A DNA stretch of 64,000 bases, taken from Minisyncoccota bacterium. GTDB lineage: Bacteria; Patescibacteriota; Minisyncoccia; Phycocordibacterales; DATDWN01. The stretch lies in assembly GCA_041674105.1 (NCBI GenBank), contig JBAYWK010000003.1, positions 11,971-75,970 on the forward strand. Direction: 5' to 3'. The notes under the pieces were generated by a model. The model was not told the DNA's origin. It was given only the letters and a program-made list of their open reading frames with translations, and made no database searches. This document shows, piece by piece, positions 14,705-62,327 of this stretch (positions are counted from its first letter, which is position 1; each line of letters starts with the position of its first letter). The translations under genes were made by a program, and so were the position numbers.

Positions 14705-14746
14705 GGAAAAAACCGAGAATGGTTTTTATTTTATGTGTTTGTGGAT

Positions 14747-23051: not shown

Positions 23052-23057
23052 AGTGGT

Positions 23058-46160: not shown

Positions 46161-47450
46161 ATGAAGAAATATATTAAAAGATTATTCCGATACGAGGCTT
46201 CTTTAGTGCTTAAAAAATATAAACCAAAAATAATCGTCATTATTGGTAGTGTTGGGAAGACTAGTACAAAGGAGATGGTTTACAGTGCCTTGTCTCAAAA
46301 ATATTTTATTAGAAAGAATGAAAAAAGTTTTACAGCCAGTCTTGGTATACCTTTGGTTATTATAGGTGGTGTATTTGGTAGAGGTTCTTTATTTGATTGG
46401 TTAAAAAATTTATTTAGAGGTTTTATCTTAATTATTAAGAAAGTTAAATATCCAGAGTATTTAATACTTGAAGTAGATAACGATAAGCCGGGTGATTTAA
46501 AAACTGTAAGTGAGATGCTTTCTCCTGATCTGGTGGTTATGACAAGCATAGGTGATATGCCAACTCATGTAGAGGTTTTTGGCTCTAAAGAAAAGGTTTT
46601 GAAAGAGTATGATGATTATTTAAAATCTCTAAAACCAGAATGTAAGATTATTTACAATAAAGACGGTGAAGTTGTACGCTCCCTAATAGAAAATAAAGAT
46701 TTTGAAAAAATATCTATTACTATAGATGGTGAAGGTAATATAAACGCAGATAATAGAAAATTTTTGTATGGTAAAAATGACGGAATGAATATCTTGACCG
46801 GAGTGTCTTATGACATCGGCAGAGGAGATGAAAAACAAAATATAATTATTTTTGATTCTATTGGTATACATAGTAAGTATGCGACACTGCTTGCTTGTGG
46901 GGTCGGGATTTTTTTAGGTATACCTTTTCTAAAGAGTGTTTCTTTGCTCTCAAAATATAAAGTCTTACCCGGAAGGATGAAAATTATTTCTGGAATAAAA
47001 AATACTACTATAATAGATGATTCTTACAATTCTTCTCCTGTGGCTATGAACGAAAGTCTAAATACATTTAGTAGACTAGATATTTCAGGTAAAAAGATTG
47101 TGGTTATTGGAGATATGTTGGAGTTAGGAAAATATTCTGGAGAAGAGCACAAAAAACTTGCTCATAAAATAAAAGACATAGCGGATGTTGTCATTTTTGT
47201 TGGCATAAGGACTAGACTGACAGGTGAAGAGCTTCTAAATCTGGAATATCCAAAAGAAAATATTTTCTATTTTGACGATTCAGAAAATGCTGGTAAATTT
47301 TTACAAAATTATATTCAAAAAGGGGATTGTATTCTAGTAAAAGGTTCTCAGGCTATGAGAATGGAAAAAACTGTAGAAGAAATAATGCGTCATCCCGAAG
47401 ACAAAAAAACCCTGTTAGTTCGCCAAGAGCAAGAGTGGCGGAGGAGATAA
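46161..47450 (+). CDS. murF: Mur ligase family protein, probable UDP-MurNAc-pentapeptide synthetase MurF. The last ~20 codons are GC-rich foreign sequence.
   Basis: GSVGKTSTKE P-loop, Mur ligase middle and C-terminal domains. GC jumps at about 47395. Confidence 0.7.
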   Translation: MKKYIKRLFRYEASLVLKKYKPKIIVIIGSVGKTSTKEMVYSALSQKYFIRKNEKSFTASLGIPLVIIGGVFGRGSLFDWLKNLFRGFILIIKKVKYPEYLILEVDNDKPGDLKTVSEMLSPDLVVMTSIGDMPTHVEVFGSKEKVLKEYDDYLKSLKPECKIIYNKDGEVVRSLIENKDFEKISITIDGEGNINADNRKFLYGKNDGMNILTGVSYDIGRGDEKQNIIIFDSIGIHSKYATLLACGVGIFLGIPFLKSVSLLSKYKVLPGRMKIISGIKNTTIIDDSYNSSPVAMNESLNTFSRLDISGKKIVVIGDMLELGKYSGEEHKKLAHKIKDIADVVIFVGIRTRLTGEELLNLEYPKENIFYFDDSENAGKFLQNYIQKGDCILVKGSQAMRMEKTVEEIMRHPEDKKTLLVRQEQEWRRR

Positions 47451-47508
47451 AGAAAAACCGCCCGAGTTCTCTGCACAACTTGGTGCGGAGATCTCAGACG
47501 GTTTAGAG

Positions 47509-48357
47509 CTAATTGCGATCGGCGTTGACAGTCAGGTTTCCCTGCTCGTCCTCATCTACCCGAAGGTTTTTGTATCCCTCCATTTTGGCGAAGACGTTAC
47601 CGTCTTTGCCAATGGTTAGTCGGAACCTTCTGGTCCGAGTTGGCGGCTGTTTCTCCGGCTCCTCGTTTTGAGGAGGAGTTACTGGAGGAGTCTGTGGTTG
47701 TACAGGTGCAACCAGTGGCATCAGTTGGACTGGAGTTGGTCGCGGTGTTAGCGGTGCCGGAGTCGGAGCAGGAGTTGGTGGAGTCGGCCTAAGAGGACGT
47801 CTACCTTCTCTCCGGTTCTGGATTACTCGGTAGACTGCGTATCCAAGCAAGGCCAGAAGAGCCATAAACAGAAGTAAGGGGATCAGAGATCCCAAAATTT
47901 CTGCAAGTCCTCCCCAGGAACGTCCCATGGCATTTTTGAAACGCCCCCATGCAGATAGTGGAGCGTGTTCATTACCAGATATATTGGAATACGTTACCGT
48001 GCTGGCGACTTCTTCCACAGGCTTTGGGACCTCCACCAACCTGTTTCCGCAGTCCGCTTTGTAGCGGATTGTGCCAGTGGTGTCCACGAGGACTATTGTG
48101 TTTGCTGGAAGTGTCTCCAGGACAAACCGTCCTTTGTTGTCGCGAAGCCCGCGGAAGTGGTTTTGAACCACAATTGCCTTCCGTAGGAAATGAGGCGCGA
48201 GCCGCATTTCGGCCTGCTGTCGTGTCGACAGCGGACCGGAAACGACGGGGAACTTGTCCATTTCAGCATCCGCTGGAATGGTGAACTCTCCACGTTGTGC
48301 GAATACTGGCAAAGCCAGCATCGCAAAAAAGATTGCAAAAAACCAAACTTTCTTCAT
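47509..48357 (-). CDS. GC-rich secreted/membrane proline-rich protein (282 aa)
   Basis: Signal peptide, a second TM, and a PTPPTPAPTPAPLTPRPTP low-complexity region. About 55% GC. Confidence 0.5.
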   Translation of the reverse strand: MKKVWFFAIFFAMLALPVFAQRGEFTIPADAEMDKFPVVSGPLSTRQQAEMRLAPHFLRKAIVVQNHFRGLRDNKGRFVLETLPANTIVLVDTTGTIRYKADCGNRLVEVPKPVEEVASTVTYSNISGNEHAPLSAWGRFKNAMGRSWGGLAEILGSLIPLLLFMALLALLGYAVYRVIQNRREGRRPLRPTPPTPAPTPAPLTPRPTPVQLMPLVAPVQPQTPPVTPPQNEEPEKQPPTRTRRFRLTIGKDGNVFAKMEGYKNLRVDEDEQGNLTVNADRN

Positions 48358-48493
48358 TCTATCTCACTTTCTGTCAAACTAACTATCTAAACGCTATTAT
48401 AACATATTCCTCTAAAAAAGCAAGTATTTTGTAGGATTACTATGCACTAAATCCTTGTATAAAACACAAAAAAATGGTTAATATATGTGTATT

Positions 48494-48565
48494 GGCCTTA
48501 TCGTCTAACGGTTAGGACGAAGCCTTCTCAAGGCTTAAATCGGGGTTCGATTCCCCGTAAGGTCA
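48494..48565 (+). tRNA. tRNA-Glu (anticodon CTC)
   Basis: Acceptor GGCCTTA/TAAGGTC, D-arm GTCT/GGAC, anticodon stem AAGCC/GGCTT with loop TTCTCAA, T-arm CGGGG-TTCGATT-CCCCG. Confidence 0.85.
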
Positions 48566-48670
48566 CAAGTAGACCCATCTTCTGATAGCTTTTGAATAAA
48601 TTCATGCAGTTGCTTGTTTTATTGTATTTTTTAAAGAAATATGACATATTTTGTGAGGAAGGAGGTTCTC

Positions 48671-49090
48671 ATGGGCGAACAATTTTGGAATTTTAATTGC
48701 AGGTATTGTGGTCGGCACTTGAAACTGACTGTACAAGAAAATAACCTTGGAAACAAAGTCGAAGTTCTTTGCCAGGGTTGTGGTCAACAGACATCTACAA
48801 TCATAGGCACAATAGAAAAGAGGGAAAATGTGGATCTACCTCTAGAAGTAAAACAAAAAATAGAAAAATTAACTAAAGAGATTCAAGAAAATTCAGATAT
48901 TCTTAATCTTGTTGAATCAATCTGGCAAGACGGATTTAGTTTAATGCTTGCCGTTGGGGTGTATGAAAATAGATTCAATAATGAAACTATTTTTATTCCG
49001 AAAGTTGATAGTGATGGAAAAATCACTGATGGAACTTTCACTGAAACAGATGAAGAAGCTTTTCGCAAAGCGTTCAGGATCAAACTCTGA
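48671..49090 (+). CDS. Zn-ribbon (CxxC x2) protein, hypothetical (starts MGEQ)
   Basis: CRYCGRH...CQGCGQ. Strong SD AGGAGGT 5 nt upstream. GC-rich. Confidence 0.45.
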   Translation: MGEQFWNFNCRYCGRHLKLTVQENNLGNKVEVLCQGCGQQTSTIIGTIEKRENVDLPLEVKQKIEKLTKEIQENSDILNLVESIWQDGFSLMLAVGVYENRFNNETIFIPKVDSDGKITDGTFTETDEEAFRKAFRIKL

Positions 49091-49191
49091 TACGCTGCTC
49101 TCAAAGCCGACAATTAGAGCAATCCATTCCGGATTGCTCTTTCTTTTTAATGCAAAAAGTGTAATATTGGGGACGGAAAGGGTACATAGAT

Positions 49192-49446
49192 ATGATCTGG
49201 CAAGATGTTGTAATGATGATCGGGCAATTTGTGTTTTTCGTTGCCATGATACCGACAGTCAAAGCTGTCGAAAAACCGGCGTTCTCAACTTCTCTGGTGA
49301 CCTCAGCGGTCATCACTCTTTATATTCCAACTCTCTGGACACTTCACCTCTATGTGTCAGTTGTTTCTACCATCCTACTCGCTTTCGCTTGGTGGACGGT
49401 GACCTACCAGAGTTGGAAGAGAAGTCAGCTGGCCGCCAACTCCTAA
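49192..49446 (+). CDS. Small membrane protein (84 aa, 2-3 TM)
   Basis: Hydrophobic, RBS GAAAGGG, GC-rich. Confidence 0.4.
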   Translation: MIWQDVVMMIGQFVFFVAMIPTVKAVEKPAFSTSLVTSAVITLYIPTLWTLHLYVSVVSTILLAFAWWTVTYQSWKRSQLAANS

Positions 49447-49477
49447 TAAAGATTCGCCAAAAACGGCAAAACTAAAT

Positions 49478-49512
49478 ACTCGTCACTACCTTCAGCGACG
49501 AGTTTTCTTTTT
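49478..49512 (+). terminator. Rho-independent terminator
   Basis: ACTCGTC...GACGAGT followed by TTTCTTTTT. Confidence 0.55.
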
Positions 49513-49552
49513 AAAACATCGAGGATTTTGACAGTGGGGAAATTAGGGGTAC

Positions 49553-49582
49553 TTGACTTTTGTATACAAAGTGTGCTATAAT
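49553..49582 (+). promoter_or_regulatory. Promoter module A: TTGACT-18-TATAAT with the palindrome TTGTATACAA in the spacer
   Basis: ACTTGACTTTTGTATACAAAGTGTGCTATAAT, near-identical to 50859-50890 and to the minus strand at 61339-61372. Confidence 0.6.
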
Positions 49583-49600
49583 TAAGGGTAGGAGGTGTTC

Positions 49601-49897
49601 ATGGGACAAGCAGAAGTTGATTTAAATGGTGGAGTCACCATTGTTAAAATCGGAGGGAAGCCATTCGAAACTGTCATCGATAAGCAAGGAATTCAGAGGT
49701 TTAAGACCGACAGACTGATAAACTCTTTGTATGAAATCGGTAGTATTGACCTCAATCAACTTGCGGTTCAATACCAGCGCGGGGCATTCACTCAGGAGGA
49801 ATATCTAAGGTTTTATACCGGTATCGGGTGTTCCGTGACCGGCTTATATGACCTTCCTTTTTTTCTCGATTTGGAGATCGAGAATCCGCTATGGTAA
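49601..49897 (+). CDS. Small hypothetical protein beginning MGQAEVDLNGG (98 aa)
   Basis: Strong SD GGTAGGAGGT. GC-rich. Start re-set to ATG 49601. Confidence 0.5.
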   Translation: MGQAEVDLNGGVTIVKIGGKPFETVIDKQGIQRFKTDRLINSLYEIGSIDLNQLAVQYQRGAFTQEEYLRFYTGIGCSVTGLYDLPFFLDLEIENPLW

Positions 49898-49905
49898 CCA
49901 ACCGT

Positions 49906-49942
49906 AAAACCGCTCGCGCCAAGAGGTGTCGAGCGGTTTTTT
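49906..49942 (+). terminator. Terminator module T1
   Basis: AAAACCGCTCGCGCC-aaga-GGTGTCGAGCGGTTTTTT. Near-identical to 50805..50842. Confidence 0.7.
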
Positions 49943-49990
49943 ACAAACCTAAATTTTTTTATCTTCCCTCAAATTTCACCAAAAAACCCT
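49943..49990 (+). repeat. About 45-nt cassette-junction motif, copy 1 (ACAAACCTAAATTTTTTTATCTTCCCTCAAATTTCACC...)
   Basis: Recurs at 51371..51417 with about 90% identity, each time between a terminator and the next gene's promoter. Confidence 0.45.
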
Positions 49991-50056
49991 TTACTTATTG
50001 ACTTTTATATTGTTTAAATATAGGATGTTTTACGGAGTTTTTGAAAGGAGAGCGCG

Positions 50057-50782
50057 ATGTCGCCTGAAGAAAAACAACAAGGAGATTGGTGGGGTAAGTT
50101 TTTTGGTAAAATCATCACGAGTATTATCGTCTTGCCTATCATCATGTGGATCTGGCCGGATGTAGTGCCTTTCGGATTCTTCCAGCTCTGGAAAGTCGAG
50201 GGTACAATGAGCCAGTGGCTCATTTCTTCATGGCCTATATTTGTGTGGGGAGCCGGAGTTACTCTCGTGCATGGTTTCTTCACTCGTAATGAGAGGCACA
50301 TAAATCGTAATGCAGAGCTTATAATCAAAGAAGGTGCTATTGTCAGCATCATTGCAGGGGTTGGAGAGGAGATCACTTTTAGGTGGCTATTCTTCCTTGA
50401 CAATATTGTTTCTGTAAAGATTGCAAACTGGTTCTTTTTTGGTTTTATTGGGTTTGGAATCCCAGCGTGGTTCCATATGTATATTGTTGGACCCATTGCT
50501 AACTGGTTCACTCTTGGGGAACTCGAATCTTTTATTTTCCACTCGACTGGATGGGCCGTAGGGGCAGCGATGCTCACAACGAATGCATTCTTTCGGGACG
50601 GTCATCGATATTTGGGTTTTCTAGGTTTCGTGAATAGCTGGTTTTTGGGAATGTTTCTTTTTTGGATTATGTTCAAGTACGGATTACTTGCAGCGATTCT
50701 TATTCACTTCACTTATGATTTTCTCATCTACCTCGTTCATTATGTAGATTCGGCAATCGAAAGGGCGATGGGATACGCGTAG
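50057..50782 (+). CDS. CPBP-family (CAAX protease / Abi) intramembrane metalloprotease
   Basis: Polytopic membrane protein with GEEITFRWLFF (EExxxR), FHSTGW (FxxxH) and ILIHFTYDF (HxxxD/N) motifs. Confidence 0.7.
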   Translation: MSPEEKQQGDWWGKFFGKIITSIIVLPIIMWIWPDVVPFGFFQLWKVEGTMSQWLISSWPIFVWGAGVTLVHGFFTRNERHINRNAELIIKEGAIVSIIAGVGEEITFRWLFFLDNIVSVKIANWFFFGFIGFGIPAWFHMYIVGPIANWFTLGELESFIFHSTGWAVGAAMLTTNAFFRDGHRYLGFLGFVNSWFLGMFLFWIMFKYGLLAAILIHFTYDFLIYLVHYVDSAIERAMGYA

Positions 50783-50804
50783 TACCGGCTCCTGTCAGTA
50801 ATTC

Positions 50805-50842
50805 AAAAACCGCTCGCACCAAAAGGTGCCGAGCGGTTTTTC
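50805..50842 (+). terminator. Terminator module T2
   Basis: AAAAACCGCTCGCACC-aaaa-GGTGCCGAGCGGTTTTT. Confidence 0.7.
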
Positions 50843-50860
50843 TTATATAAAAATAGACAC

Positions 50861-50890
50861 TTGACTTTCGTATACAAAATGTGCTATAAT
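50861..50890 (+). promoter_or_regulatory. Promoter module B (TTGACT-18-TATAAT, spacer palindrome TTCGTATACAAAA)
   Basis: ACTTGACTTTCGTATACAAAATGTGCTATAAT, then GTAGGAGGT SD and ATG 50911. Confidence 0.6.
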
Positions 50891-50910
50891 CAAGTGTAGG
50901 AGGTTTTTTT

Positions 50911-51318
50911 ATGTCCAACGCTCCCTTATATGAAGGGTTGGAATACAACTTGACGCTCTCTTTCAGCCACCTCTATGGTGACAAGTGGGCCGCTTTCTAT
51001 GGAAAAGAGACCCCTTACCAAAGGCGTCGGATCATCTTTCCTCAGTTCACCCCTGAGGAAGGGAAAGAGTATGCCGTGCGAGTGAAGGTAACAAAGACAG
51101 GAATCTTTACCTATAAAGGTGAAGACTTCCAAGTCTGCAGAGCCGAGCTCGCTGAGGCCGCTACCAAGGGTGAGGTTCTTGTTCATCAGATGTTTAATGG
51201 GCGAGAACCAATGACAGAGATTGGGCTAGCAATGCAAAGAGCGGGAGTTGGGAGTGCAGTCAGTACTGCTCTGGCTGACCAACTCAGGGCTGCCGGTTTC
51301 CGCCAGAGTCGGAAGTAA
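50911..51318 (+). CDS. Hypothetical protein (135 aa), GC-rich
   Basis: Driven by module B, strong SD. No recognisable motifs. Confidence 0.5.
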   Translation: MSNAPLYEGLEYNLTLSFSHLYGDKWAAFYGKETPYQRRRIIFPQFTPEEGKEYAVRVKVTKTGIFTYKGEDFQVCRAELAEAATKGEVLVHQMFNGREPMTEIGLAMQRAGVGSAVSTALADQLRAAGFRQSRK

Positions 51319-51334
51319 CACCGGACAATTTCAT

Positions 51335-51370
51335 AAGGTCGCGCGGATAATCGCGTGACCTTTTCTTTTT
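51335..51370 (+). terminator. Rho-independent terminator T3
   Basis: AAGGTCGCGCG-gataat-CGCGTGACCTT followed by TTCTTTTT. Confidence 0.7.
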
Positions 51371-51417
51371 ACAACCTAAATTTTTTATCATCCCTCAAAT
51401 TTCACCCAAGCTAATTA
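51371..51417 (+). repeat. Cassette-junction motif, copy 2 (ACAACCTAAATTTTTTATCATCCCTCAAATTTCACC...)
   Basis: See 49943..49990. Confidence 0.45.
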
Positions 51418-51429
51418 ATGAATTTCTCA

Positions 51430-51458
51430 TTGAAAAAACCCTAAAAAGGGAGTAGAGT
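51430..51458 (+). promoter_or_regulatory. Putative promoter of the MazG/DUF2075 cluster (TTGAAA-17-TAGAGT). ATG only about 12 nt downstream, so the mRNA may be near-leaderless.
   Basis: TTGAAA 51430-51435 and TAGAGT 51453-51458. No canonical SD before ATG 51470. Confidence 0.35.
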
Positions 51459-51469
51459 TATTGGTAATT

Positions 51470-51817
51470 ATGAGTAATATTAAAGATTTAACAAAAAGGA
51501 TTATAGTTTTTAGAGATGCTAGAGACTGGAAACAATTCCACAATCCAAAAGACCTCGCTTTGTCTTTGGTTTTAGAAGCAACAGAAGTCATGGAACATTT
51601 CCAATGGAAAAATAAAGAGGAGATGGAAGAACATCTAAAGACACACAAAGAAGACGTGGCAGACGAACTTGCTGATACATTATATTGGATTTTATTAATG
51701 GGAAATGATTTTAATATTGATGTTCTAAAAGCCTTAGATAAAAAACTAAAAAAAATTGAAGAAAAATATCCAGTAGAAAAAGCCAAAGGGAGGCATACTA
51801 AGTATAACAAGCTGTAA
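51470..51817 (+). CDS. MazG-like nucleoside-triphosphate pyrophosphohydrolase (small all-alpha NTP-PPase)
   Basis: FRDARDWKQFHNPKDLALSLVLEATEVMEHFQW ... ELADTLYWILLMGNDFNIDV is the MazG/YpjD-like signature. Stop 2 nt before the next gene. Confidence 0.7.
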   Translation: MSNIKDLTKRIIVFRDARDWKQFHNPKDLALSLVLEATEVMEHFQWKNKEEMEEHLKTHKEDVADELADTLYWILLMGNDFNIDVLKALDKKLKKIEEKYPVEKAKGRHTKYNKL

Positions 51818-51818
51818 C

Positions 51819-53858: not shown

Positions 53859-53879
53859 AGTCTGATATATAAGTTAGCC

Positions 53880-54599: not shown

Positions 54600-54675
54600 T
54601 TAAGTATATAAACTAAATGTGAATTGATGAAATTCCATTTTTCACTCTTTATAAAAAGTAATGTAAAATAAATTT

Positions 54676-55107
54676 ATGAACAATAAAGATTTATATTTTG
54701 TGGCGGTAAAGGTTTTTATGGAAAAAGATGGAAAACTTTTGATTATGAAAGATAATTTTGGATGTTGGGATTTACCGGGAGGAAGAATTAAATTAGATGA
54801 ATTTGAGACATCTTTGGACGATATTATCAAAAGAAAAATGAAGGAAGAGCTGGGAGAAAATATTGAATACGAAATTGGCAAGCCTGTGATTTTTATGCGC
54901 CATGAAAGAATCGAAAGTTCGCCAGGGAATCCTACTGTTAGGATTTTTGCTGTAGGATATGAAGGAAAATTGTTGGGTGGTGAGATAAAACTTTCGGAAA
55001 GACATACCGAAATGCTTTGGGTAGATCCAGATAATTTCAAACCGGAAGATTATTTCACAGGAGGTTGGCTTAAAGGAGTAAAGGAATATTTAAATTTGAA
55101 AAAATAA
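54676..55107 (+). CDS. NUDIX hydrolase
   Basis: Nudix box GGRIKLDEFETSLDDIIKRKMKEELGENI (Gx5Ex7REUxEExGU). Confidence 0.8.
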   Translation: MNNKDLYFVAVKVFMEKDGKLLIMKDNFGCWDLPGGRIKLDEFETSLDDIIKRKMKEELGENIEYEIGKPVIFMRHERIESSPGNPTVRIFAVGYEGKLLGGEIKLSERHTEMLWVDPDNFKPEDYFTGGWLKGVKEYLNLKK

Positions 55108-55111
55108 ACCT

Positions 55112-55642
55112 ATGGAAAAGCAACCACAACAATTTGATATTGAAAATAGTCCAATGAAGGAAGCTTATAATTTGATTGGTGCAAATAGTCCTAAAGAGTT
55201 AGATAGTCTATATAATAAAGCAGACCAAGAACTGATGAAGTCAAAAGAGTGGGATTATAATAATCCCGATCTAGTTACAAATAGAATAAAAAATATTATT
55301 GAAAATATTGACAAGAATTTACTGACAGAAGAAGAAAAAGACTGGAGGCAAATGATACTTTGGTTTTGGTACCACCACGCTATGAGTGTGGCAATAGGTC
55401 TATTTGGAGATAAAGAAAAAGCAAAAGAATTTGGTGCAAAAGCAATGGAGCTTAACCCTAAAGATAACAGTAATAAAATTACTGAGATTTATTATTTGCT
55501 TTTGAATGATAATCTGGCCAAAGCAGAGGATCTAGTCGGCTCTATCCCAGAAGGACTTCTTGATGATGGAAATCCAAATCCAGAACCACAAACCGCAAGA
55601 GAACTGATTGAAGAATACAAACAAGGTTTGTTTGGGGTTTGA
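55112..55642 (+). CDS. Hypothetical protein (176 aa), 5-nt gap after NUDIX
   Basis: ORF with tight operon spacing. Acidic, predicted helical. Confidence 0.5.
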   Translation: MEKQPQQFDIENSPMKEAYNLIGANSPKELDSLYNKADQELMKSKEWDYNNPDLVTNRIKNIIENIDKNLLTEEEKDWRQMILWFWYHHAMSVAIGLFGDKEKAKEFGAKAMELNPKDNSNKITEIYYLLLNDNLAKAEDLVGSIPEGLLDDGNPNPEPQTARELIEEYKQGLFGV

Positions 55643-55681
55643 ATAAATGGAAAATTATCTAAAAAATGATATTGTGGATTT

Positions 55682-55825
55682 ATGGAAAAGGAATTAAAGA
55701 TTAAAACGCCGGACAAAAAATTGATTTATGGATCTTTTGTTTCTGCTGGTAAAAAGTCTGATAAACTTGTGATTTTTGTTCATGGATTTACTGGTCACAA
55801 AAATGAACACATATTTTTCTCCTGA
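55682..55825 (+). pseudogene. Truncated alpha/beta-hydrolase N-terminal fragment (47 codons)
   Basis: MEKELKIKTPDKKLIYGSFVSAGKKSDKLVIFVHGFTGHKNEHIFFS then stop. HGFTGH is the typical start of an alpha/beta-hydrolase fold. No catalytic core follows. Confidence 0.4.
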
Positions 55826-55980
55826 CAAGCTTTTTTGGTAGATGCTATTTGACTAAACTCTATGGTTTTTCCTTCATCAATTTTGTAATTTCCCAATAAA
55901 TTATTACAGTCAGTTGTTGCTGAAAAATGACCATCTTGTGTAAATGAGAGGACAAAATCTTCTGCTTTATTTGGTGTCAC
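55795..55980 (-). pseudogene. META (HslJ-like) domain fragment, in frame with upstream MliC but separated by two stop codons
   Basis: DCNNLLGNYKIDEGKTIEFSQIASTKKAC matches the META-domain core. GTG start. Stops at 56029-31 and 56017-19 in the shared frame. Confidence 0.4.
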
Positions 55981-56028
55981 TATTTTATTATTTGAATAAA
56001 GAGTTCTTTGGCATTACTACTCTGTATT

Positions 56029-56403
56029 CTATAGAGACATATCTAGTGTTCCTTCACCACCTTTTAAGAGTGGGGCATCTTGAAATACCATTTGACCATC
56101 TATTTCTAAACTAGCTGTTCCTTGATGTTCCCAAAAAATGACTGACTCATTGGGAGAAGTATATCTTGCTCCAGAGCCAGATATAGCTACGTTTAGTTCG
56201 TATTTTTTATTATCAAAGATAACTTCGGCTTTGCTAGAGTCGTTATTATATTGAATAGTAAATTCTTTGCCTGCATCTGCAAAAGTAAAGACATCACTTG
56301 TGTAAGCTATTTTTTCTGCATTGTTTTTTGATGTGAGCCAAAAATAGCCTGCACCTAATAAGATTATAATCACGACTGCAATAAGTAAGTTTTTTGTATT
56401 CAT
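56029..56403 (-). CDS. MliC/PliC-family lysozyme inhibitor, membrane anchored
   Basis: N-terminal TM, then ISGSGARYTSPNESVIFWEHQGTASLEIDG (SGSGARYT...FW...G signature). Confidence 0.6.
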   Translation of the reverse strand: MNTKNLLIAVVIIILLGAGYFWLTSKNNAEKIAYTSDVFTFADAGKEFTIQYNNDSSKAEVIFDNKKYELNVAISGSGARYTSPNESVIFWEHQGTASLEIDGQMVFQDAPLLKGGEGTLDMSL

Positions 56404-56533
56404 ATTTTTTGGGTTACTTATAAAGATAAGGTTAAAACCCTATGTTTCTCATTATAAGAAATATGGTCTACAATAACAAACATTTGACAAAAGCTTTAAA
56501 ATATTTAATTATTCGGTTAGAAGGAGGTGCGAG

Positions 56534-56809
56534 ATGGGACAAAATAATAATGCTTTACCATTCTCTTGGGTAAAGAACAAGTTAAAAGAGAAGAAAAACA
56601 AAGCATTGAGACTTGATAGAAACTCTAAGGAGTATATCGAGGAATGGCTAGAGATTGTTGATTTCATTAGGCGAGTCTTGGAACTTCTACCAGAGGAGAG
56701 CCAAGAGAGACGGGTGATGCTTTATGAACTTGTGACCGCTCTCGTCGAGGGGAACAAGCTAGAGGAAGCTCATGATGCTCTGGATGAGCTAAGGAGGATA
56801 AAAGGTTAG
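56534..56809 (+). CDS. Small hypothetical protein beginning MGQNNN (91 aa)
   Basis: Strong SD GAAGGAGGT. Helical, charged C-terminus. Confidence 0.45.
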   Translation: MGQNNNALPFSWVKNKLKEKKNKALRLDRNSKEYIEEWLEIVDFIRRVLELLPEESQERRVMLYELVTALVEGNKLEEAHDALDELRRIKG

Positions 56810-56849
56810 ACAAGATAGTCGGTTTGGTTTACTCTAAGAAAGGGGGAAC

Positions 56850-56942
56850 ATGAAAGGCTATGGACCGTTTTTTTGTTTCTTTTTTGGTGGCAGTGGTTTA
56901 TTTGCCATCATGATGTTTGTGACGGCTTTCAGCAAGCATTGA
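56850..56942 (+). CDS. Possible 30-aa hydrophobic peptide (not in the ORF track)
   Basis: SD AAAGGGGGA 6 nt before ATG. MKGYGPFFCFFFGGSGLFAIMMFVTAFSKH. Terminator directly downstream. Confidence 0.35.
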   Translation: MKGYGPFFCFFFGGSGLFAIMMFVTAFSKH

Positions 56943-56953
56943 AGGCCAAAACA

Positions 56954-56981
56954 GGTCGGCACGCTTTGTGCCGACCTTTTG
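56954..56981 (+). terminator. Rho-independent terminator
   Basis: GGTCGGCAC-gcttt-GTGCCGACC followed by TTTT. Confidence 0.7.
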
Positions 56982-56994
56982 TTATAATAAAAAT

Positions 56995-57693
56995 ATGAAG
57001 TCAGAAGACATTGTAAGAGATTTAAATAAATTAAAAAATAAAGAAAAAGCTAAAACTTCTTCTGGTTTCTTTAAGACAAAGAAAGGACAGTATGGGTATG
57101 GTGATAAATTTTTGGGAATCACTGTGCCAGAGCAAAGAAAAATTGCTAAAAAATATAAAGAATTAAAACTTTCTGAAATCCAAGAACTTTTAAAATCTCC
57201 TATACACGAAAACCGGTTTACCGCTTTGGAAATTTTGGTTATGAAATATGAGAACTCCCAAAATAAGGAAAAAGAAAAGATAGCTAAATTTTATTTAAAA
57301 AATACAAAAAATATAAATAATTGGGATTTGGTAGACGCATCAGCAAGCTATATTTTGGGAGATTTTTTGTATAAAAAAGACAGAGGAGTGCTTTACAAGC
57401 TAGTAAAGTCTGAAAATCTATGGGAGAGAAGAATTGCTGTAGTTTCTACATATTATTTTATAAAAAGAGGGGATTTTAAAGACATAATAAAATTGTCAGA
57501 AATTCTTTTAAAAGATAAGCACGATCTTATCCAAAAAGCTGTCGGCTGGATGCTACGCGAAGCCGGTAAGAGAGATCAAAAAGTTTTACTTTCTTTTTTA
57601 GACAAAAATCACAAAGAAATGCCTAGAACCATGCTTAGGTATTCTTTAGAAAAACTAAGTACTAAACAGAAAAATTTTTATATGAAAAAATAA
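56995..57693 (+). CDS. AlkD-like HEAT-repeat DNA alkylation-repair glycosylase family protein
   Basis: NWDLVDASASYILG and QKAVGWMLREAGKRD are characteristic of the DNA_alkylation family. Start re-set to MKSEDIV. Confidence 0.7.
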   Translation: MKSEDIVRDLNKLKNKEKAKTSSGFFKTKKGQYGYGDKFLGITVPEQRKIAKKYKELKLSEIQELLKSPIHENRFTALEILVMKYENSQNKEKEKIAKFYLKNTKNINNWDLVDASASYILGDFLYKKDRGVLYKLVKSENLWERRIAVVSTYYFIKRGDFKDIIKLSEILLKDKHDLIQKAVGWMLREAGKRDQKVLLSFLDKNHKEMPRTMLRYSLEKLSTKQKNFYMKK

Positions 57694-57743
57694 TACACAT
57701 CTTTTGTGGATAAGGATATTTAAATCGTATATACTTAAGCTGT

Positions 57744-60461
57744 ATGGAAAAGTACAATCAAAATTCTTTTAATTCTCCAGAAGATGAAATAAATTTTTTG
57801 CGAGAACAAATAGCTCAAAAAGAAAAGGAACTTTCGGAAAAAAACTATTCTGTAGATAAAAAACTTGTAGTCCAAGAACAAATTTCCAAGTACAAAAATA
57901 CTCTGTCAGAGGAGGTTTTAGATAAAGATTATAAGATTTCAGAAGACGACTTGGAGTCTTTTAAGCTCAAACTTTCTCCAGATCATCACGATAAAAAGAT
58001 AAAAGAACTTGTCGGTATTATGAATGAAAAAGGTATACACAATGCCCTTTCTGTTTTGTCTGGGTTGAAAGATCCGCATTTAGAGGACGATTTTCATAGA
58101 TTTTTAGTTCAATATTTTTCAGATGATAGGAAAGTAAAAGGTCTAAAGTCAAAAGAAGGTCTGTCTAGGGGTATAGGAATGAAACTATATGAGTTTGTAT
58201 TGCCGGACGAAGAGGAGGGTGAAAAAACAAAAACTCTAAAAGAAATAATCTCTGGTATGGAGCAGTTTTACTCTGGAATGCTTTCTATTTATTCAAAGAA
58301 ATCACAAAGTCATATCGTTATAGAGATAGCCAATGCAAATGACAGCGACCAGTTTGTTTTTTATGTGGCAGTACCAAAAGAGCACACAGACCTTTTTGAA
58401 AAACAAATAATATCTATTTTCCATAATGCCAGACTTACTGAGGTTGTGGATGATTACAATATTTTCAATGAAGATGGTATTTCTCTGGGCTCATACGCTG
58501 AGCTGAAAGAGAGTCCTGTTTATCCTATTAAAACATACGAGAATTTTGACCATGATCCAATGAATGTTATCTTGAATAGTTTCTCAAAAATAGAAAAAGA
58601 AGGAGAAGGTGCAGCATTACAAATCGTTTTGGCTCCACAAGGTGATTATTTTAATGATAAGTATTCTTTTGCTATAGACCAAATAGAAAAAGGGGCTGAT
58701 GTCAAAAAAGCAGTTTCCATGAAAGAATCTTTTGCAGGAGACCTTGGAAAAGTTTTAAAAGATTTGTTTAAAGCTCCAAAAGAAGAGGAAAAAAAAGAAA
58801 TAGATACTAATGCTATAGAAAAGATAAAAAGAAAAATAAGTGCTCCAATTTTAGCTACAAACATAAGAATCATTGCTTCAAGTAGGAATAGGTTGGGAGC
58901 GGAGAAGATCCTGAAAGAAATAGAATCTAGTTTCAACCAGTTTACTGATACAAACTCCAATGCTATAAAATGGCAAAGGCCAGAAAAAAAACCTTTGCAA
59001 AGGCTTTTTAGAGATTTTTCTTTTAGACTATATAATCCAACTCAGTTGGTTCCTCTAAATATTCACGAAATCAATACTATTTCTCATTTTCACACAACAA
59101 GGCTCTCACCAAACCCTCAACTCAGAAAAACTCAGTACGCCGAGGTTCCACCACCAAGTGAAATATCAAGTGCGGGAACTCTTTTAGGAATTAATTCCTA
59201 TAGAAATACTGACACAAAAATAAATATTTTGGATGAAGATAGGCTGAGACATTTTTATACCATTGGTCAGACGGGTACAGGAAAATCTACCCTACTAAAG
59301 AATATGATTATTCAGGATATAAAAAATGGTCACGGGGTCTGTATGATAGACCCTCATGGTATAGATATGATGGATATTATGGCCAACATTCCGAAAGATA
59401 GGTTTAATGATGTTATTTATTTTGATCCTAGTTATATAGAAAGACCTATGGCTCTAAATATGCTTGAGTACGATCCTCGTTTTCCAGAACAAAAAACTTT
59501 TGTGGTCAATGAGTTATTTAGTATTTTTCAAAAACTATATGGTGGTGCGCCAGAGTCTATGGGACCTATGTTTGAACAATATTTTAGAAACGCTACTATG
59601 CTTGTCATAGAAGATCCAGAAACAGGTTCTACTCTATTAGATGTTTCTAGGGTGATGTCCGATAAAACTTTTAGAGATCTAAAAATTTCTAGATGTAAAA
59701 ATCCTGTGGTAGTTGAGTTTTGGAAAGAAGTAGCAGAGAAAGCTGGTGGGGAAGCGACCTTAGCAAACATCGTACCGTACATCACAAGCAAGTTTGATGT
59801 CTTTTTGGCAAATGAAATAATGCGTCCGATAATTGCCCAAGAAAAGTCTTCTTTCAATTTTCGAGACATAATGGATAATAGAAAAATTCTTTTGGTAAAC
59901 CTTTCCAAAGGAAGACTTGGAGATATAAATGCAAACCTCATAGGACTTATTTTGGTCGGTAAAATACTAATGTCTGCTCTTTCTAGAGCCGATATTATTG
60001 GAAAAGATTTTCCACCGTTTTACCTTTATATAGACGAGTTTCAAAATGTAACTACAAATTCTATTTCTACTATTTTGTCTGAAGCTAGAAAATATAAACT
60101 TTCTCTAAATATTGCTCATCAGTTTATTGCGCAACTTGAAGAAGGTATAAGAGATGCTGTATTTGGGAATGTCGGCTCAATTGTTTCATTTAGGGTAGGT
60201 GCAGAAGATGCAGAGTATTTGGAAAAACAGTTTGCCCCAGTTTTTACAGCTCGCGATATTATGAATATAGACAATAGAAATGCTTATGTAAAAATGCTTA
60301 TTGCAGGTAGGCCGGCCAAAGCTTTCAATATGAAAACACTGCCTCCTCCAGAGGGAAATCCAAGTATAGTAGGTGCTCTAAAACAACTTTCCTACTTTAG
60401 TTATGGTGGAAATAAGGAAGAGATAGAAGCGGATATTTTGAAGAAATATAAGAAAAGGTAA
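57744..60461 (+). CDS. Large P-loop ATPase of the TraG/TraD/VirD4 (type IV coupling protein, TrwB/DUF87-like) type with a ~480-aa unknown N-terminal region
   Basis: Walker A FYTIGQTGTGKST, Walker B YLYIDEFQNV, and a C-terminal ARKYKLSLNIAHQFIAQL motif like TraG-D_C. Confidence 0.55.
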   Translation: MEKYNQNSFNSPEDEINFLREQIAQKEKELSEKNYSVDKKLVVQEQISKYKNTLSEEVLDKDYKISEDDLESFKLKLSPDHHDKKIKELVGIMNEKGIHNALSVLSGLKDPHLEDDFHRFLVQYFSDDRKVKGLKSKEGLSRGIGMKLYEFVLPDEEEGEKTKTLKEIISGMEQFYSGMLSIYSKKSQSHIVIEIANANDSDQFVFYVAVPKEHTDLFEKQIISIFHNARLTEVVDDYNIFNEDGISLGSYAELKESPVYPIKTYENFDHDPMNVILNSFSKIEKEGEGAALQIVLAPQGDYFNDKYSFAIDQIEKGADVKKAVSMKESFAGDLGKVLKDLFKAPKEEEKKEIDTNAIEKIKRKISAPILATNIRIIASSRNRLGAEKILKEIESSFNQFTDTNSNAIKWQRPEKKPLQRLFRDFSFRLYNPTQLVPLNIHEINTISHFHTTRLSPNPQLRKTQYAEVPPPSEISSAGTLLGINSYRNTDTKINILDEDRLRHFYTIGQTGTGKSTLLKNMIIQDIKNGHGVCMIDPHGIDMMDIMANIPKDRFNDVIYFDPSYIERPMALNMLEYDPRFPEQKTFVVNELFSIFQKLYGGAPESMGPMFEQYFRNATMLVIEDPETGSTLLDVSRVMSDKTFRDLKISRCKNPVVVEFWKEVAEKAGGEATLANIVPYITSKFDVFLANEIMRPIIAQEKSSFNFRDIMDNRKILLVNLSKGRLGDINANLIGLILVGKILMSALSRADIIGKDFPPFYLYIDEFQNVTTNSISTILSEARKYKLSLNIAHQFIAQLEEGIRDAVFGNVGSIVSFRVGAEDAEYLEKQFAPVFTARDIMNIDNRNAYVKMLIAGRPAKAFNMKTLPPPEGNPSIVGALKQLSYFSYGGNKEEIEADILKKYKKR

Positions 60462-60539
60462 AAGTGTCAAAGACCGTCTCTGACACTGTACTTGATTTTT
60501 TATGGTTTTTGGTGTTTAATTTGTTTCGGAGGGAAGATC

Positions 60540-60932
60540 ATGAGTCAGTCAGACAGGGAGATTCTAAGGCAATTAAGTCTTAGTCAGGCCAATTTAGCTA
60601 GAATTATTGGCACAAGTAGACAAGCGGTTAATGCTGGTATTAAAAAGGAAACTGATTATATAACGAGTTCAGTCGTTCTGATGATACATAAGGTTTTTGT
60701 ATTAGATGATGATCCAAGAAAATCTGTAGCAGAACAGATATTGCGTGATTTATTTTCTGTAAATGTTGAGTCTAATTTTTTAGTTACAGACCTTTTGGGT
60801 ATTAATTTAGATACAGAAAAAATTCAGTTAATACTAAACAATAAAGCTCTAAGAGATTCTTTGAGAGATAAAATTTCTCAGGTAATAAATAATTATTGCG
60901 ATAATTTCAAGAATTTTTTTGACACGCAATAA
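60540..60932 (+). CDS. XRE-like helix-turn-helix transcriptional regulator
   Basis: LSQANLARIIGTSRQAVNAGIKKE HTH. RBS GGAGGG. Start re-set to MSQSDRE. Confidence 0.6.
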   Translation: MSQSDREILRQLSLSQANLARIIGTSRQAVNAGIKKETDYITSSVVLMIHKVFVLDDDPRKSVAEQILRDLFSVNVESNFLVTDLLGINLDTEKIQLILNNKALRDSLRDKISQVINNYCDNFKNFFDTQ

Positions 60933-60937
60933 TCTTA

Positions 60938-60964
60938 AAACCGTCTTGAAAAAGACGGTTTTTC
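60938..60964 (+). terminator. Rho-independent terminator
   Basis: AAACCGTCTT-gaaa-AAGACGGTTT followed by TTTC. Confidence 0.75.
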
Positions 60965-61008
60965 TATGCAAGAATTTACTACAATATATTGTAGTAAAAA
61001 ATTTAGGT

Positions 61009-61042
61009 ATAAAAAAAGAGGTAACCGAAAACGTTGGTTACC
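61009..61042 (-). terminator. Terminator for the 61049..61321 minus-strand gene
   Basis: Minus strand: GGTAACC-aacgttttc-GGTTACC followed by TCTTTTTTTAT. Confidence 0.65.
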
Positions 61043-61048
61043 CCTGTC

Positions 61049-61321
61049 CTAGTCACGGTCTCCACGGGGGAGTCCGGCGTACATTGGGGTGTTTACATTT
61101 GGTATAACCCCTGTATGGCTTTTCTTTTTCCGTCTCGAGATTTCTCCCAAAACGGACTTTGTGAAAGAGTTGGCTTCATCCTGTCCAACTTCTTGGACGG
61201 AGAAGCTGTATGTCAGTTCCCACATCTCTAGTTTGGTTAGAGGAACACCGATTTCTCGGCACTTTTCCAAAACTTGAGATTTTACAATCTGGACCCTACG
61301 GGCCCATTCGTTTCTGTCCAT
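61049..61321 (-). CDS. Hypothetical protein (90 aa), GC-rich, driven by promoter module D
   Basis: SD AGGAGG before ATG (MDRNEWARR...). No recognisable motifs. Confidence 0.5.
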   Translation of the reverse strand: MDRNEWARRVQIVKSQVLEKCREIGVPLTKLEMWELTYSFSVQEVGQDEANSFTKSVLGEISRRKKKSHTGVIPNVNTPMYAGLPRGDRD

Positions 61322-61338
61322 TTGTCCTCCTATTATAT

Positions 61339-61368
61339 ATTATATCATACTTTGTATATAAAAGTCAA
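61339..61368 (-). promoter_or_regulatory. Promoter module D (minus strand): TTGACT-TTTATATACAAAGTATGA-TATAAT
   Basis: Reverse complement of 61339-61372 is AACTTGACTTTTATATACAAAGTATGATATAAT. Third copy of the island promoter module. Confidence 0.5.
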
Positions 61369-61404
61369 GTTATCCACAATTTTATAGGTAATTTAATCAA
61401 ATTA

Positions 61405-61432
61405 TTGATTTTTACAAAATTAATTGTATTAT
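61405..61432 (+). promoter_or_regulatory. Promoter (TTGATT-16-TATTAT) for the MGQA paralog, divergent from module D
   Basis: Followed by GGCAGGAGGTTTTTATGGGACAAGCAG, which matches module A from the SD through codon 4. Confidence 0.45.
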
Positions 61433-61450
61433 GGGTGGCAGGAGGTTTTT

Positions 61451-61738
61451 ATGGGACAAGCAGGTGTTGAACATGGAGTTACTATGCTATCGAATGCTAT
61501 CTTGTATCAGAGAATTGAAAAAATTATTTCTTTGATTCCAGACGACTTCGGTAATAAGGAGATCATTGTAAAATCTCTTAAAGGAATCCAAGATTCTTTG
61601 CCGTTTACGGCTCCTGGAGCTATAAACACGAGATGGTTTCAGGTATCAGGAGTTTTGGAGGTAAATCTTCCAGATCCAGACACAGCTCCTTGGGCAATGG
61701 AGATTGCAAAGATCTTTGCTGAGGATTTTGAAGAATGA
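61451..61738 (+). CDS. Small hypothetical protein beginning MGQAGVEHG (95 aa)
   Basis: Shares SD + ATGGGACAAGCAG with the 49601 gene but is otherwise dissimilar. GC-rich. Confidence 0.5.
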   Translation: MGQAGVEHGVTMLSNAILYQRIEKIISLIPDDFGNKEIIVKSLKGIQDSLPFTAPGAINTRWFQVSGVLEVNLPDPDTAPWAMEIAKIFAEDFEE

Positions 61739-61750
61739 AGCTAATAAAAA

Positions 61751-61780
61751 AGAGGCGACCTAGGGCGTCTCTTTTATTTT
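61751..61780 (+). terminator. Rho-independent terminator (approximate right edge of the island)
   Basis: AGAGGCG-acctaggg-CGTCTCT followed by TTTATTTT. Confidence 0.6.
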
Positions 61781-61804
61781 GGTTTCGAAAATTTTATTAA
61801 GTCT

Positions 61805-62260: not shown

Positions 62261-62327
62261 AATAATTTAAAATTAAAATATAAAAAATATAATACCATAT
62301 TCCACTTATATTTGATAGAATACTCTT

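Follow-up and report, generated by a model that had tools for sequence, protein, structure and literature searches.

Introduction

Additive flexible genomic islands are variable regions that remain fixed between conserved core genes, often beside a tRNA gene. Here we analyse the interval between murF and yqeY (47.4–61.8 kb) in a 64,000-nucleotide stretch of DNA, hereafter the window, from a Minisyncoccota bacterium (assembly GCA_041674105.1, contig JBAYWK010000003.1, positions 11,971–75,970 of the forward strand). The original prediction, made from the letters of the window, was of one mosaic accessory island, ~14 kb long, inserted at the murF 3′ end and suggestive of a decayed conjugative or integrative element. 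We consider it likely that the interval is instead an additive flexible hotspot, in which a conserved backbone is retained and its gaps are filled unit by unit, and not one integrated element. Loci and contigs fetched from relatives, or from an independent assembly of the same sample, are referred to by L-numbers (L001–L171 etc.). The main open reading frames (ORFs) of 47.4–61.8 kb, 47 residues and larger, were scanned for domains with Pfam and, for most, also with NCBIfam, PHROGs or PADLOC.

The murF–yqeY backbone

The interval is a conserved Paceibacterota backbone with the order ...ftsI-murF-tRNA-Glu(CTC)...alkD-virD4-like-yqeY(−)-rmuC-rplU. At its upstream end murF (46161–47450, + strand; Pfam Mur_ligase_M and Mur_ligase_C) is a core gene of the division and cell-wall cluster, including its native C-terminal tail, which the original prediction had taken to be encoded by the foreign segment. 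The tail motif MRHPEDK..LLVRQE.EW..R is kept in 23 of 23 relatives, and the tail is the same as in the window both in L003, the closest species representative (MurF 66%, FtsI 78%), where the last 150 nt of murF are 81% identical, and in L080, a contig nearer than L003 with a core ~89% identical to the window at the nucleotide level. The last 60 nt of murF are enriched in GC over the whole gene by +0.20 in the window, and by +0.09 on average and up to +0.21 in relatives. As the tail peptide is conserved and the enrichment is generic, the GC of the tail reflects the peptide and not foreign DNA, and with a native tail an insertion at the 3′ end of murF is not supported. The composition boundary is the murF stop codon together with the long hairpin that follows it (47455–47505), which lies between the convergent genes murF and g282 and recurs in L080; we read it, from the sequence, as a predicted bidirectional terminator.

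The tRNA-Glu(CTC) gene (48494–48566, + strand; ARAGORN and Rfam), which together with one other tRNA makes up all Rfam matches of the whole window, had been counted as island cargo, and turns out to be a neighbour that murF has kept throughout the class: 24 fetched loci have a + strand tRNA-Glu(CTC) 3′ of murF, often 30–200 nt away. Further downstream, an AlkD-like DNA glycosylase gene (56968/56995–57693, + strand; Pfam DNA_alkylation) is followed by the gene for a 905-residue VirD4/TraD-like ATPase (57744–60461, + strand; Pfam T4SS-DNA_transf and TraG-D_C, with a DUF8128 N-terminal region), both with a GC content at third codon positions (GC3) of 0.25–0.26. Two loci whose MurF is 49–51% identical (L007 and L073) have murF, tRNA-Glu, a short variable stretch, alkD (58–62%) and the VirD4-like gene (68%), an order that goes on in L007 with yqeY (− strand), rmuC and rplU, and alkD also lies 3′ of murF in L005. 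The VirD4-like protein has more than 385 full-length relatives in JGI metagenomes at 50–70% identity; in the closest of these (L089, L091 and L093) yqeY (− strand) lies downstream, followed in L089 and L091 by rmuC and rplU. In the window the backbone resumes in the same way with yqeY (61805–62260, − strand; Pfam YqeY), rmuC and rplU, as originally predicted. In L089 (802–5837) the VirD4-like gene begins 576 nt after ftsI, with no murF detected between them.

A survey of Patescibacteria reported 5,713 VirD4-type homologues in 2,918 genomes, most of them away from virB4, with relaxases being rare (PMC12102498). Like these chromosomal homologues, the gene described here lies far from any virB4 and has no relaxase nearby. 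Nothing notable sets it apart from them; the 905-residue gene adds the DUF8128 N-terminal region and the alkD-virD4-like-yqeY arrangement. Since the VirD4-like gene is conserved, chromosomal and syntenic, it provides no evidence of a conjugative element, and its reading as the coupling ATPase of a decayed one is abandoned. The protein also matches phrog_5156, of unknown function, over nearly its full length (E 1.7e-78); either this family is carried by some phages or it goes back to prophage regions that were called in error.

A single decayed conjugative or integrative element of ~14 kb at the murF 3′ end, bringing with it the MurF tail, tRNA-Glu, the ATPase and a regulator, would account for the sharp GC rise near the end of murF, for the presence of a VirD4/TraD-like ATPase together with a helix-turn-helix (HTH)-like protein, and for an interval twice as long as in any relative examined. 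We regard it as extremely improbable given the backbone just described, in which the MurF tail and tRNA-Glu are conserved and alkD and the VirD4-like gene are syntenic and have core-like GC3. The scans found no integrase, relaxase, other type IV secretion system (T4SS) genes or repeats, and the middle of the supposed element contains a segment homologous to native intergenic DNA of L003. Its parts also differ in distribution, with g282 shared at the site by relatives and the units between tRNA-Glu and alkD not found in the examined murF-linked loci.

Composition of the interval

Windowed GC rises from ~0.32 to 0.51–0.54 at ~47.4 kb and stays high until ~48.4 kb, so that the jump noted in the original prediction is real. 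It is 0.41–0.49 across 49.0–51.4 kb and 0.24–0.37, as in the rest of the window, across 51.4–61.0 kb, with bumps at 56.6–57.0 and 61.0–61.4 kb. Windows whose GC exceeds the mean by more than 10 points account for 14% of the interval vs 3.9% of positions 1–46 kb. The atypical DNA therefore forms four patches (47.45–48.4, 49.1–51.4, 56.5–56.95 and 61.05–61.3 kb) that amount to ~4.5 kb of 14.4 kb, with GC3 values of 0.43–0.53 vs a median of 0.23 in core genes. Among the atypical genes GC3 is 0.50 in g282, 0.46 in g98, 0.46 in g241, 0.53 in g135, 0.45 in g91 and 0.49 in g90 (that of g84 was not taken in its own frame), while the genes for MazG, the DUF2075 protein, g239, NUDIX, g176, MliC, AlkD, the VirD4-like ATPase and g146 lie at 0.15–0.29. 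Amino-acid content was considered as the cause of the high GC and rejected: with GC3 at twice the core value it is no explanation for the composition.

A classical genomic island has a uniformly atypical composition and is absent as a block from relatives. Here the composition is not uniformly atypical across the block, the remainder of which has core-like GC3, and tRNA-Glu, alkD, the VirD4-like gene and g282 are found at the same positions in relatives. The description of 47.4–61.8 kb as non-core throughout thus holds for the four patches and the accessory genes, and not for the tRNA-Glu, alkD and VirD4-like genes of the syntenic backbone. Its picture of a mosaic of AGGAGG-led GC-rich genes and AT-rich genes, i.e. 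of at least two gene pools, is borne out, as is most of its gene list by Pfam; the CPBP, XRE and hydrolase assignments are weak.

Content of the backbone gaps

In 18 species representatives murF and yqeY are at most 10 kb apart, with an interval of 0.85–6.9 kb (median 3.8 kb), vs 14.35 kb here. The smallest gap between the two genes among relatives is 848 nt and in none does murF directly abut yqeY. The relatives have the same flanking core genes with differing content and length between them, as in a hotspot. In the window ~10.8 kb of accessory DNA is distributed over three gaps of the backbone, ~1.0 kb between murF and the tRNA, ~8.4 kb between the tRNA and alkD, and ~1.3 kb between the VirD4-like gene and yqeY, the last of these being 1343 nt here vs 12 nt in L089 and 375 nt in L007. 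Accessory DNA in three separate gaps, apparently made of independent units with different histories, does not fit the single element first proposed. The content of the gaps appears to be built of independently acquired units, as suggested by differences in composition, in the use of ribosome-binding sites and in the distributions of g282, g241 and the MazG-DUF2075 module.

What follows tRNA-Glu varies between relatives. In L003 it is a gene for a 142-residue protein, then a RadC-like gene and a type I methylase, and in both L073 and L007 it is a GC-rich NUDIX-like gene with a TTGACTTT... promoter, with two further GC-rich units in L073. The original prediction had set its island against an ancestral region, whose genes would recur in relatives at the same place and with the same composition; g282, a part of the region, does recur in this way in two relatives.

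The absence of an integrase, a relaxase and flanking repeats, noted at the outset, is confirmed by the ORF scans and the repeat searches alike. No integrase, recombinase or transposase domain was found in the scanned ORFs of 47.4–61.8 kb, nor any relaxase or mating-pair formation gene (VirB4 etc.), the VirD4/TraD-like ATPase being the only protein of this kind. With up to 3 mismatches allowed, the tRNA-Glu 3′ end has no further copy in the 64 kb, and the repeats of the window include no duplicate of the murF 3′ end at the far side. In four relatives the last 16 nt of tRNA-Glu(CTC) do have extra copies, 150–650 nt downstream (L003 13643–13658; L007 11667–11682; L011 11629–11644 and 12052–12067; L030 12125–12140), and these are footprints of repeated site-specific integration at the tRNA. 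L007 also has a degenerate 5′ tRNA-like copy upstream, at ~11306–11345.

Reuse of the tRNA site in relatives, the differing content 3′ of it and the presence of gene remnants would all be expected if one island of ~8.4 kb (48.6–56.9 kb) had entered site-specifically at the tRNA-Glu(CTC) 3′ end, its integrase and far att repeat having since disappeared. Such an island is nevertheless unlikely: the window has neither the tRNA 3′ repeat nor an integrase, and the att-like repeats of the relatives bound inserts of only a few hundred nucleotides. By its composition and its use of ribosome-binding sites the block falls into unrelated parts, the MazG-DUF2075 module within it has sharp boundaries and a distribution of its own, and both a leader homologous to L003 (51410–51468) and a terminator shared with that locus lie inside it.

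Assembly support

An independent Logan assembly of run SRR6484325, which is the same sample, contains the region in three contigs that correspond, on window coordinates, to a stretch ending at 48522 (L001), to ~48538–52025 (L079) and to ~52098–62675 (L002). The junctions between GC-rich and AT-rich DNA fall inside single contigs of this assembly, that of murF and g282 in L001, those from g139 through g135 to MazG in L079 and those of the g91 and g90 units in L002. As the independent assembly reproduces all of the junctions, they are not the product of one assembler. The murF-g282 junction is moreover present in two other samples and species.

The genome was assembled from a metagenome, and the independent assembly is broken at the tRNA and within the DUF2075 gene, either of which could raise the suspicion that GC-rich pieces of another organism were joined in error during assembly or binning. 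We give next to no credence to such a chimera in view of the junctions within single contigs, the recurrence of the murF-g282 junction elsewhere, and the AT-rich promoters and tails that flank the units in continuous sequence. The assemblies of two samples both break at or just before tRNA-Glu, with L001 ending at 48522 and L080 starting ~80 nt before the tRNA; these breaks would fit strain-level variation in what follows the tRNA, a repeat effect being equally possible.

Single-gene units and shared modules

A GC-rich unit consists of a single gene with its own near-consensus sigma-70 promoter and intrinsic terminator and mostly an AGGAGG site. Three such units follow each other on the + strand between the tRNA and the MazG gene. 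Unit A (49552–49980) has a promoter module (49552–49582), an AGGAGG site, g98 (49601–49897), a terminator module (49906–49941) and a sequence that we term the tail (49942–49980). Unit B (49998–50841) has a promoter at 49998–50026, g241 (50057–50782) and a second copy of the terminator module (50806–50841), and unit C (50860–51406) a second copy of the promoter module (50860–50890), an AGGAGG site, g135 (50911–51318), a terminator (51335–51362) and a second tail (51368–51406). Upstream of alkD the g91 unit (56484–56977, + strand) comprises a promoter (56484–56512), an AGGAGG site, g91 (56534–56809) and a terminator (56953–56977), and adds a 30-residue hydrophobic peptide (56850–56942). In the gap before yqeY, unit D (60995–61369) is on the − strand, with a third copy of the promoter module (61369–61339), an AGGAGG site, g90 (61321–61049), a terminator and a partial inverted tail (61016–60995), and unit E (61424–61775, + strand) has g95 (61451–61738) and a terminator (61748–61775). 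The g282 unit (47509–48424, − strand; 282 residues, GC 0.53), with a TGnTATAAT promoter at ~48424–48396, occupies the gap between murF and the tRNA.

An all-against-all comparison showed that only the promoter, the ribosome-binding site with the start codons, the terminator and the tail are shared among units, around ORFs that are unrelated. Copies of the promoter module are found in A, C and D, the ribosome-binding site and first six codons in A and E (MGQAEV and MGQAGV, respectively), the 36-nt terminator module in A and B, and the tail motif of ~40 nt in A and C; the first 22 nt of this motif also follow D, in inverted orientation. Within 17 kb the promoter pattern is matched best (11 of 12 positions, extended −10 included) by three near-identical modules, those that precede g98, g135 and g90. 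Terminator-like sites number 21, vs 9.2 ± 3.1 in shuffled sequences, and the best ones flank units. The terminator module is also found behind a different ORF 3′ of tRNA-Glu in L003, with compensating stem changes. A fuzzy search of 170 fetched loci for the shared modules found the terminator in L003 only, and a distant look-alike of the promoter in L082/L083. This near absence indicates that the modules are local to the lineage of the window.

Ribosome-binding signals separate the two classes of gene: the GC-rich genes have the strong AGGAGG sites and canonical promoters originally predicted, and the AT-rich genes do not. AGGAGG is matched at five or more of its six positions in 8 of 13 cassette genes (7 of 12 GC-rich units and the AT-rich g139) vs 2 of 48 AT-rich genes; five of the eight GC-rich units inside the region have such a site, and in six cassette genes the match is perfect. 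The mean best match of AT-rich genes, 2.7 of 6 positions, is at chance level by an estimate made without a shuffle control.

The promoter-gene-terminator build and deviant GC of the units recall phage morons, and their repeated, near-identical promoters resemble phage early regions. A prophage remnant, or morons left by a degraded phage, would also agree with the PHROG matches of g139, MazG and, over its full length, the VirD4-like protein (phrog_5156). Yet the scans found no capsid, tail, terminase, portal, lysis, integrase or repressor genes, and none of the cassette proteins has a significant PHROG match. In IMG/VR there is no match to the promoter module and there are no relatives of g282, g135 or the DUF2075 protein. 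The only match to g241 in a viral collection is 34% identical, comes from a contig 402 kb long with 60% GC, and is hardly informative as to a phage origin. Taken together, a phage source is very improbable.

Units of the same build also occur outside the region, at 14281–14454, 16750–17424, 21312–21857 and 21993–22787, with GC3 values of 0.43–0.51 and a promoter and terminator of their own, so that the phenomenon is spread over the window and not local to the region. That at 21312–21857 is adenylate-kinase-like, and that at 21993–22787 encodes a secreted protein with a PEP-CTERM anchor (Pfam E 1.6e-7), a type not expected in this group. Signal- or membrane-like segments are found in about half of the products (g282, g84, g241, the 30-residue peptide and the PEP-CTERM protein); the other units of the interval encode small orphan proteins. 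A GC-rich non-coding element of ~130 nt is present in two + strand copies that are 93% identical (14573–14706 and 22920–23053), each just 3′ of a GC-rich small gene unit. It has complementary ends (CAACACAT...GTGTGTTG) and its + strand folds with z-scores of −4.2 and −7.0 against shuffled sequences; it belongs to no Rfam family and has no copy in 172 fetched loci, and could represent either a miniature mobile element or a structured RNA.

Origin of the GC-rich genes

From its sequence, the g282 protein is predicted to have a signal peptide and a single membrane segment, together with a Pro-rich stretch. The gene lies between murF and tRNA-Glu also in L003 (74% identical at the amino-acid level) and in L080, where it has a 108-nt deletion in the Pro-rich linker and a GC of 0.47 (L080 200–943 compared with window 47685–47984). 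More distant homologues are placed elsewhere on the chromosomes of other Patescibacteria, between dprA and topA in L081, where the copy has a similar leader motif, and between a helicase gene and ygjP in L082. In every case the copies are GC-rich (0.47–0.62, in genomes of 0.34–0.40) and have their own promoter and terminator. The family is small, with 29 clusters, and is from Patescibacteria wherever the source names the organism. At the nucleotide level g282 is ~80% identical between the window and L003, where ftsI is 75–79% and murF 57–75% identical, and 82–86% identical between the window and L080, against ~89% for the core.

For g241, originally called a CPBP/Abi protease, the data agree with a CPBP-like multi-pass membrane protein, but the call is weak: the Rce1-like match (E 5.6e-4) is below the Pfam cut-off, and NCBI names the homologues CPBP protease. 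Its family has 89 clusters, of Parcubacteria, Patescibacteria or 'bacterium' where named, and homologues with 62%, 50% and 34% amino-acid identity have a composition native to their contigs of 54%, 64% and 60% GC, respectively. The 62% homologue is in L171, the contig of 54% GC, which also encodes an AlkD 52% identical to that of the window. Another homologue, 66% identical, is found in L169 (3216–4085, 4284 onwards) in a GC-richer stretch (0.47–0.53) right after a nine-tRNA array, the genes before the array having a GC of 0.33–0.41, another tRNA-adjacent switch in composition. A rare orphan gene, g135, has a family of 33 clusters in a set of 1.84 billion representatives.

Gene transfer is frequent in Patescibacteria, and most individual transfers into them come from other Patescibacteria (PMC12455944). 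On the simplest reading the GC-rich genes were transferred singly, for the most part inside the phylum, from lineages that are richer in GC and use AGGAGG, in agreement with this survey.

The MazG and GIY-YIG-DUF2075-S24 module

The AT-rich additions are chiefly a discrete two-gene module of 2.4 kb (51463–53858, + strand), made of a 115-residue MazG-like pyrophosphatase (51470–51817) and, after 1 nt, a 679-residue fusion protein (51819–53858). Pfam gives the latter a weak GIY-YIG match at the N-terminus, a DUF2075/SLFN-g3 helicase core (E 7e-70) and a Peptidase_S24 domain (E 3e-20). The GC3 of the module is core-like (0.22–0.28). The fusion protein has 7,951 relatives at E ≤ 1e-10, of which the best 120 are full-length fusions 66–94% identical to it, those named among them being from Pacebacteria, Nomurabacteria and Roizmanbacteria. 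Compared with the ~40–50% identity of MurF across Patescibacteria classes, the fusion is therefore more conserved than MurF. A MazG-like gene usually precedes it, and the pair occurs at varying sites: in L084 a ribosomal-protein cluster precedes it, and in L086 a sigma-factor gene. Positions 51463–53845 of the window are 91.6% identical at the nucleotide level to L084, between flanks that are unrelated. Directly upstream, an ancestral intergenic or 5′ leader sequence (51410–51468, + strand) is homologous to the leader of the RadC-like gene 3′ of tRNA-Glu in L003, which suggests that the module was placed behind an ancestral leader.

Alignment of the C-terminal domain to E. coli LexA pairs APCGNP with VAAGEP (A84-G85), GDSM with GMSM (S119) and TIKY with TVKR (K156), so that by alignment the Ser-Lys dyad and a Cys-Gly cleavage site, as in UmuD, are intact. 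The catalytic domain, cleavage site, Ser and Lys are thus common to LexA/UmuD and the 679-residue protein, which differs in having no LexA DNA-binding domain. The helicase core matches PADLOC Nhi (E 2e-17) and AbiO (E 6e-16). The likeness to these nuclease-helicases is one of the helicase core, the Nhi match being limited to profile positions 171–377 of 470; domain order and partner gene differ, and a MazG-paired three-part fusion is not among the PADLOC systems. From this domain homology, the protein would be a nuclease-helicase switched by self-cleavage triggered by RecA and single-stranded DNA and partnered with a nucleotide pyrophosphatase, which suggests that the module may act in a DNA-damage response or in phage defence. 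A literature search, which left aside papers that mention DUF2075 and S24 together, found no paper linking DUF2075 with MazG or LexA.

Other genes

Between the tRNA and unit A lie g139 (48671–49140, + strand; terminator 49116–49140), a small AT-rich gene for a zinc-ribbon-like protein that has a perfect AGGAGG and weak matches to PADLOC PDC-M14A and phrog_10675, and g84 (49192–49503, + strand; terminator 49478–49503), of moderately high GC, which encodes an 84-residue membrane protein with membrane-like segments and is also called as a gene in L079. A partial g84 homologue is found just 3′ of murF in L010. Behind the MazG-DUF2075 module, AT-rich accessory genes occupy 53880–55642 on the + strand, a NUDIX hydrolase (54676–55107; Pfam) together with g239 and g176, both of unknown function; their GC3 is 0.15–0.29 and none of the three has homologues in murF-linked loci of relatives. 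They are followed by a 47-residue, hydrolase-like N-terminal fragment (55682–55825, + strand), for which the prediction of a truncated hydrolase is weak, the motif VIFVHGFTGH being recognised by eye and Pfam giving no match, and on the − strand by a truncated META domain (55795–55980; profile positions 26–72 of 109, E 4e-12) and a MliC-family lipoprotein (56029–56403; E 5e-14). The META and hydrolase-like remnants show that gene turnover has taken place in the gap between the tRNA and alkD. The insert between the VirD4-like gene and yqeY begins with a terminator (60463–60487) and g146 (60463–60932 together, + strand), which encodes an AT-rich protein; its prediction as an XRE regulator finds a trace in HTH matches, all of them sub-threshold.

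Proposed assembly of the interval

In the hotspot that we propose, gene transfer was probably piecemeal and intra-phylum. Host genes essentially lack AGGAGG, and the GC-rich units would thus bring their own expression signals and be expressible wherever they landed. Their most likely source is a set of lineages, mainly other Patescibacteria, that are richer in GC and use AGGAGG, and the units were probably captured via DNA uptake and recombination, for which the shared promoter, terminator and tail modules may have provided the homology, either for insertion or for the swapping of cargo. The AT-rich additions would be chiefly the MazG and GIY-YIG-helicase-S24 module, which is widespread in Patescibacteria at varying sites.

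Several observations weigh against this proposal. g282 keeps a GC3 of ~0.5 in an AT-rich genome since the split from L003, which is odd for an old foreign gene. When its substitutions are polarised, the lineage of the window has 16 changes from GC to AT vs 20 from AT to GC, and that of L080 is AT-biased (37 vs 12), in a parsimony test with a distant outgroup that is unreliable since the murF control gave an implausible excess of AT to GC changes. The composition and identity of g282 may be due to selection on its composition, to slower change where sites are GC-rich, or to recombination via the conserved flanks that replaced alleles. The donors are presumed, as is the patescibacterial origin of L171, which we take from its AlkD. 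The L080 contig ends ~80 nt before the tRNA, so that the order and age of the insertions over 48.6–57 kb are estimated indirectly, and it is from reasoning that the shared modules may have a role in recombination and from domain homology that the DUF2075-S24 module has been given a function.

The persistence of g282 would also fit a reading in which nothing in the interval is foreign, the region is ancestral and the GC-rich genes are old and native, their composition being held high by selection (e.g. on expression or mRNA stability). The gene has the same place and composition in relatives as distant as 66% MurF identity, and no AT-biased drift is seen in the lineage of the window. A native origin is decidedly unlikely, though, for genes with twice the core GC3 and with AGGAGG signals that host genes do not have, whose families are tiny and patchy (29, 89 and 33 clusters for g282, g241 and g135, respectively), whose homologues are at different loci in other genomes, and most of which are absent from the same interval in relatives.

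A more far-reaching version of the hotspot, which we think possible if rather doubtful, is that Patescibacteria share a phylum-internal pool of integrase-free, 'plug-and-play' GC-rich single-gene cassettes in conserved shells of promoter and ribosome-binding site on one side and terminator and tail on the other. After DNA uptake, insertion and cargo swap would take place by recombination at the shells, and cassettes would accumulate in a handful of intergenic landing sites, that 3′ of tRNA-Glu(CTC) being one, where their GC-rich composition and AGGAGG signals would be kept for long in AT-rich hosts without AGGAGG. The hotspot also has the phylum-wide module of MazG and the GIY-YIG-helicase-LexA-type protein, which could be what Patescibacteria have in place of a switch triggered by DNA damage or phage.

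Read as a single island, the region would wrongly put a 'decayed conjugative element' and a 'chimeric MurF' on record for an uncultivated ultra-small bacterium. As an additive hotspot it suggests that streamlined genomes gain genes one self-expressing unit at a time, in a few fixed gaps and mostly from relatives. In this respect the region is a fresh and fairly ordinary example of known genome plasticity. What merits attention are the regulatory shells in common, the contrast in ribosome-binding signals, the long-kept foreign composition, and a conserved S24 fusion module for which the literature searched holds no description.

Comparison with known systems

With tRNA-linked islands and integrative and conjugative elements the locus shares the adjacency to a tRNA, a partly deviant GC and a VirD4-type ATPase nearby. 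Unlike these, it has no integrase, relaxase, mating-pair genes or direct repeats, and its tRNA and murF tail are native. The units share the anatomy of phage morons, one gene flanked by a promoter and a terminator of its own and differing in GC from its surroundings, but they are located between chromosomal core genes with no prophage or phage genes nearby. Integron cassettes likewise form arrays of unrelated single ORFs with conserved, hairpin-containing boundaries. Such cassettes are normally promoterless, in contrast to units that have their own promoters, are in mixed orientation (D being inverted) and are accompanied by no integron integrase, and an integron-like array was rejected in the absence of an integrase and with a promoter to each unit. 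The boundary hairpins here are terminator-like, with a T-run after the stem, in a comparison with integron attC sites made without a formal attC model. The closest likeness is to additive flexible islands, in the fixed position, the small units and remnants, the tRNA at the edge, and the variable content and length. The locus differs from them in having no integrase, transposase or att repeats, and in that many of its units are single genes that have their own promoter and terminator and share these signals around unrelated ORFs.

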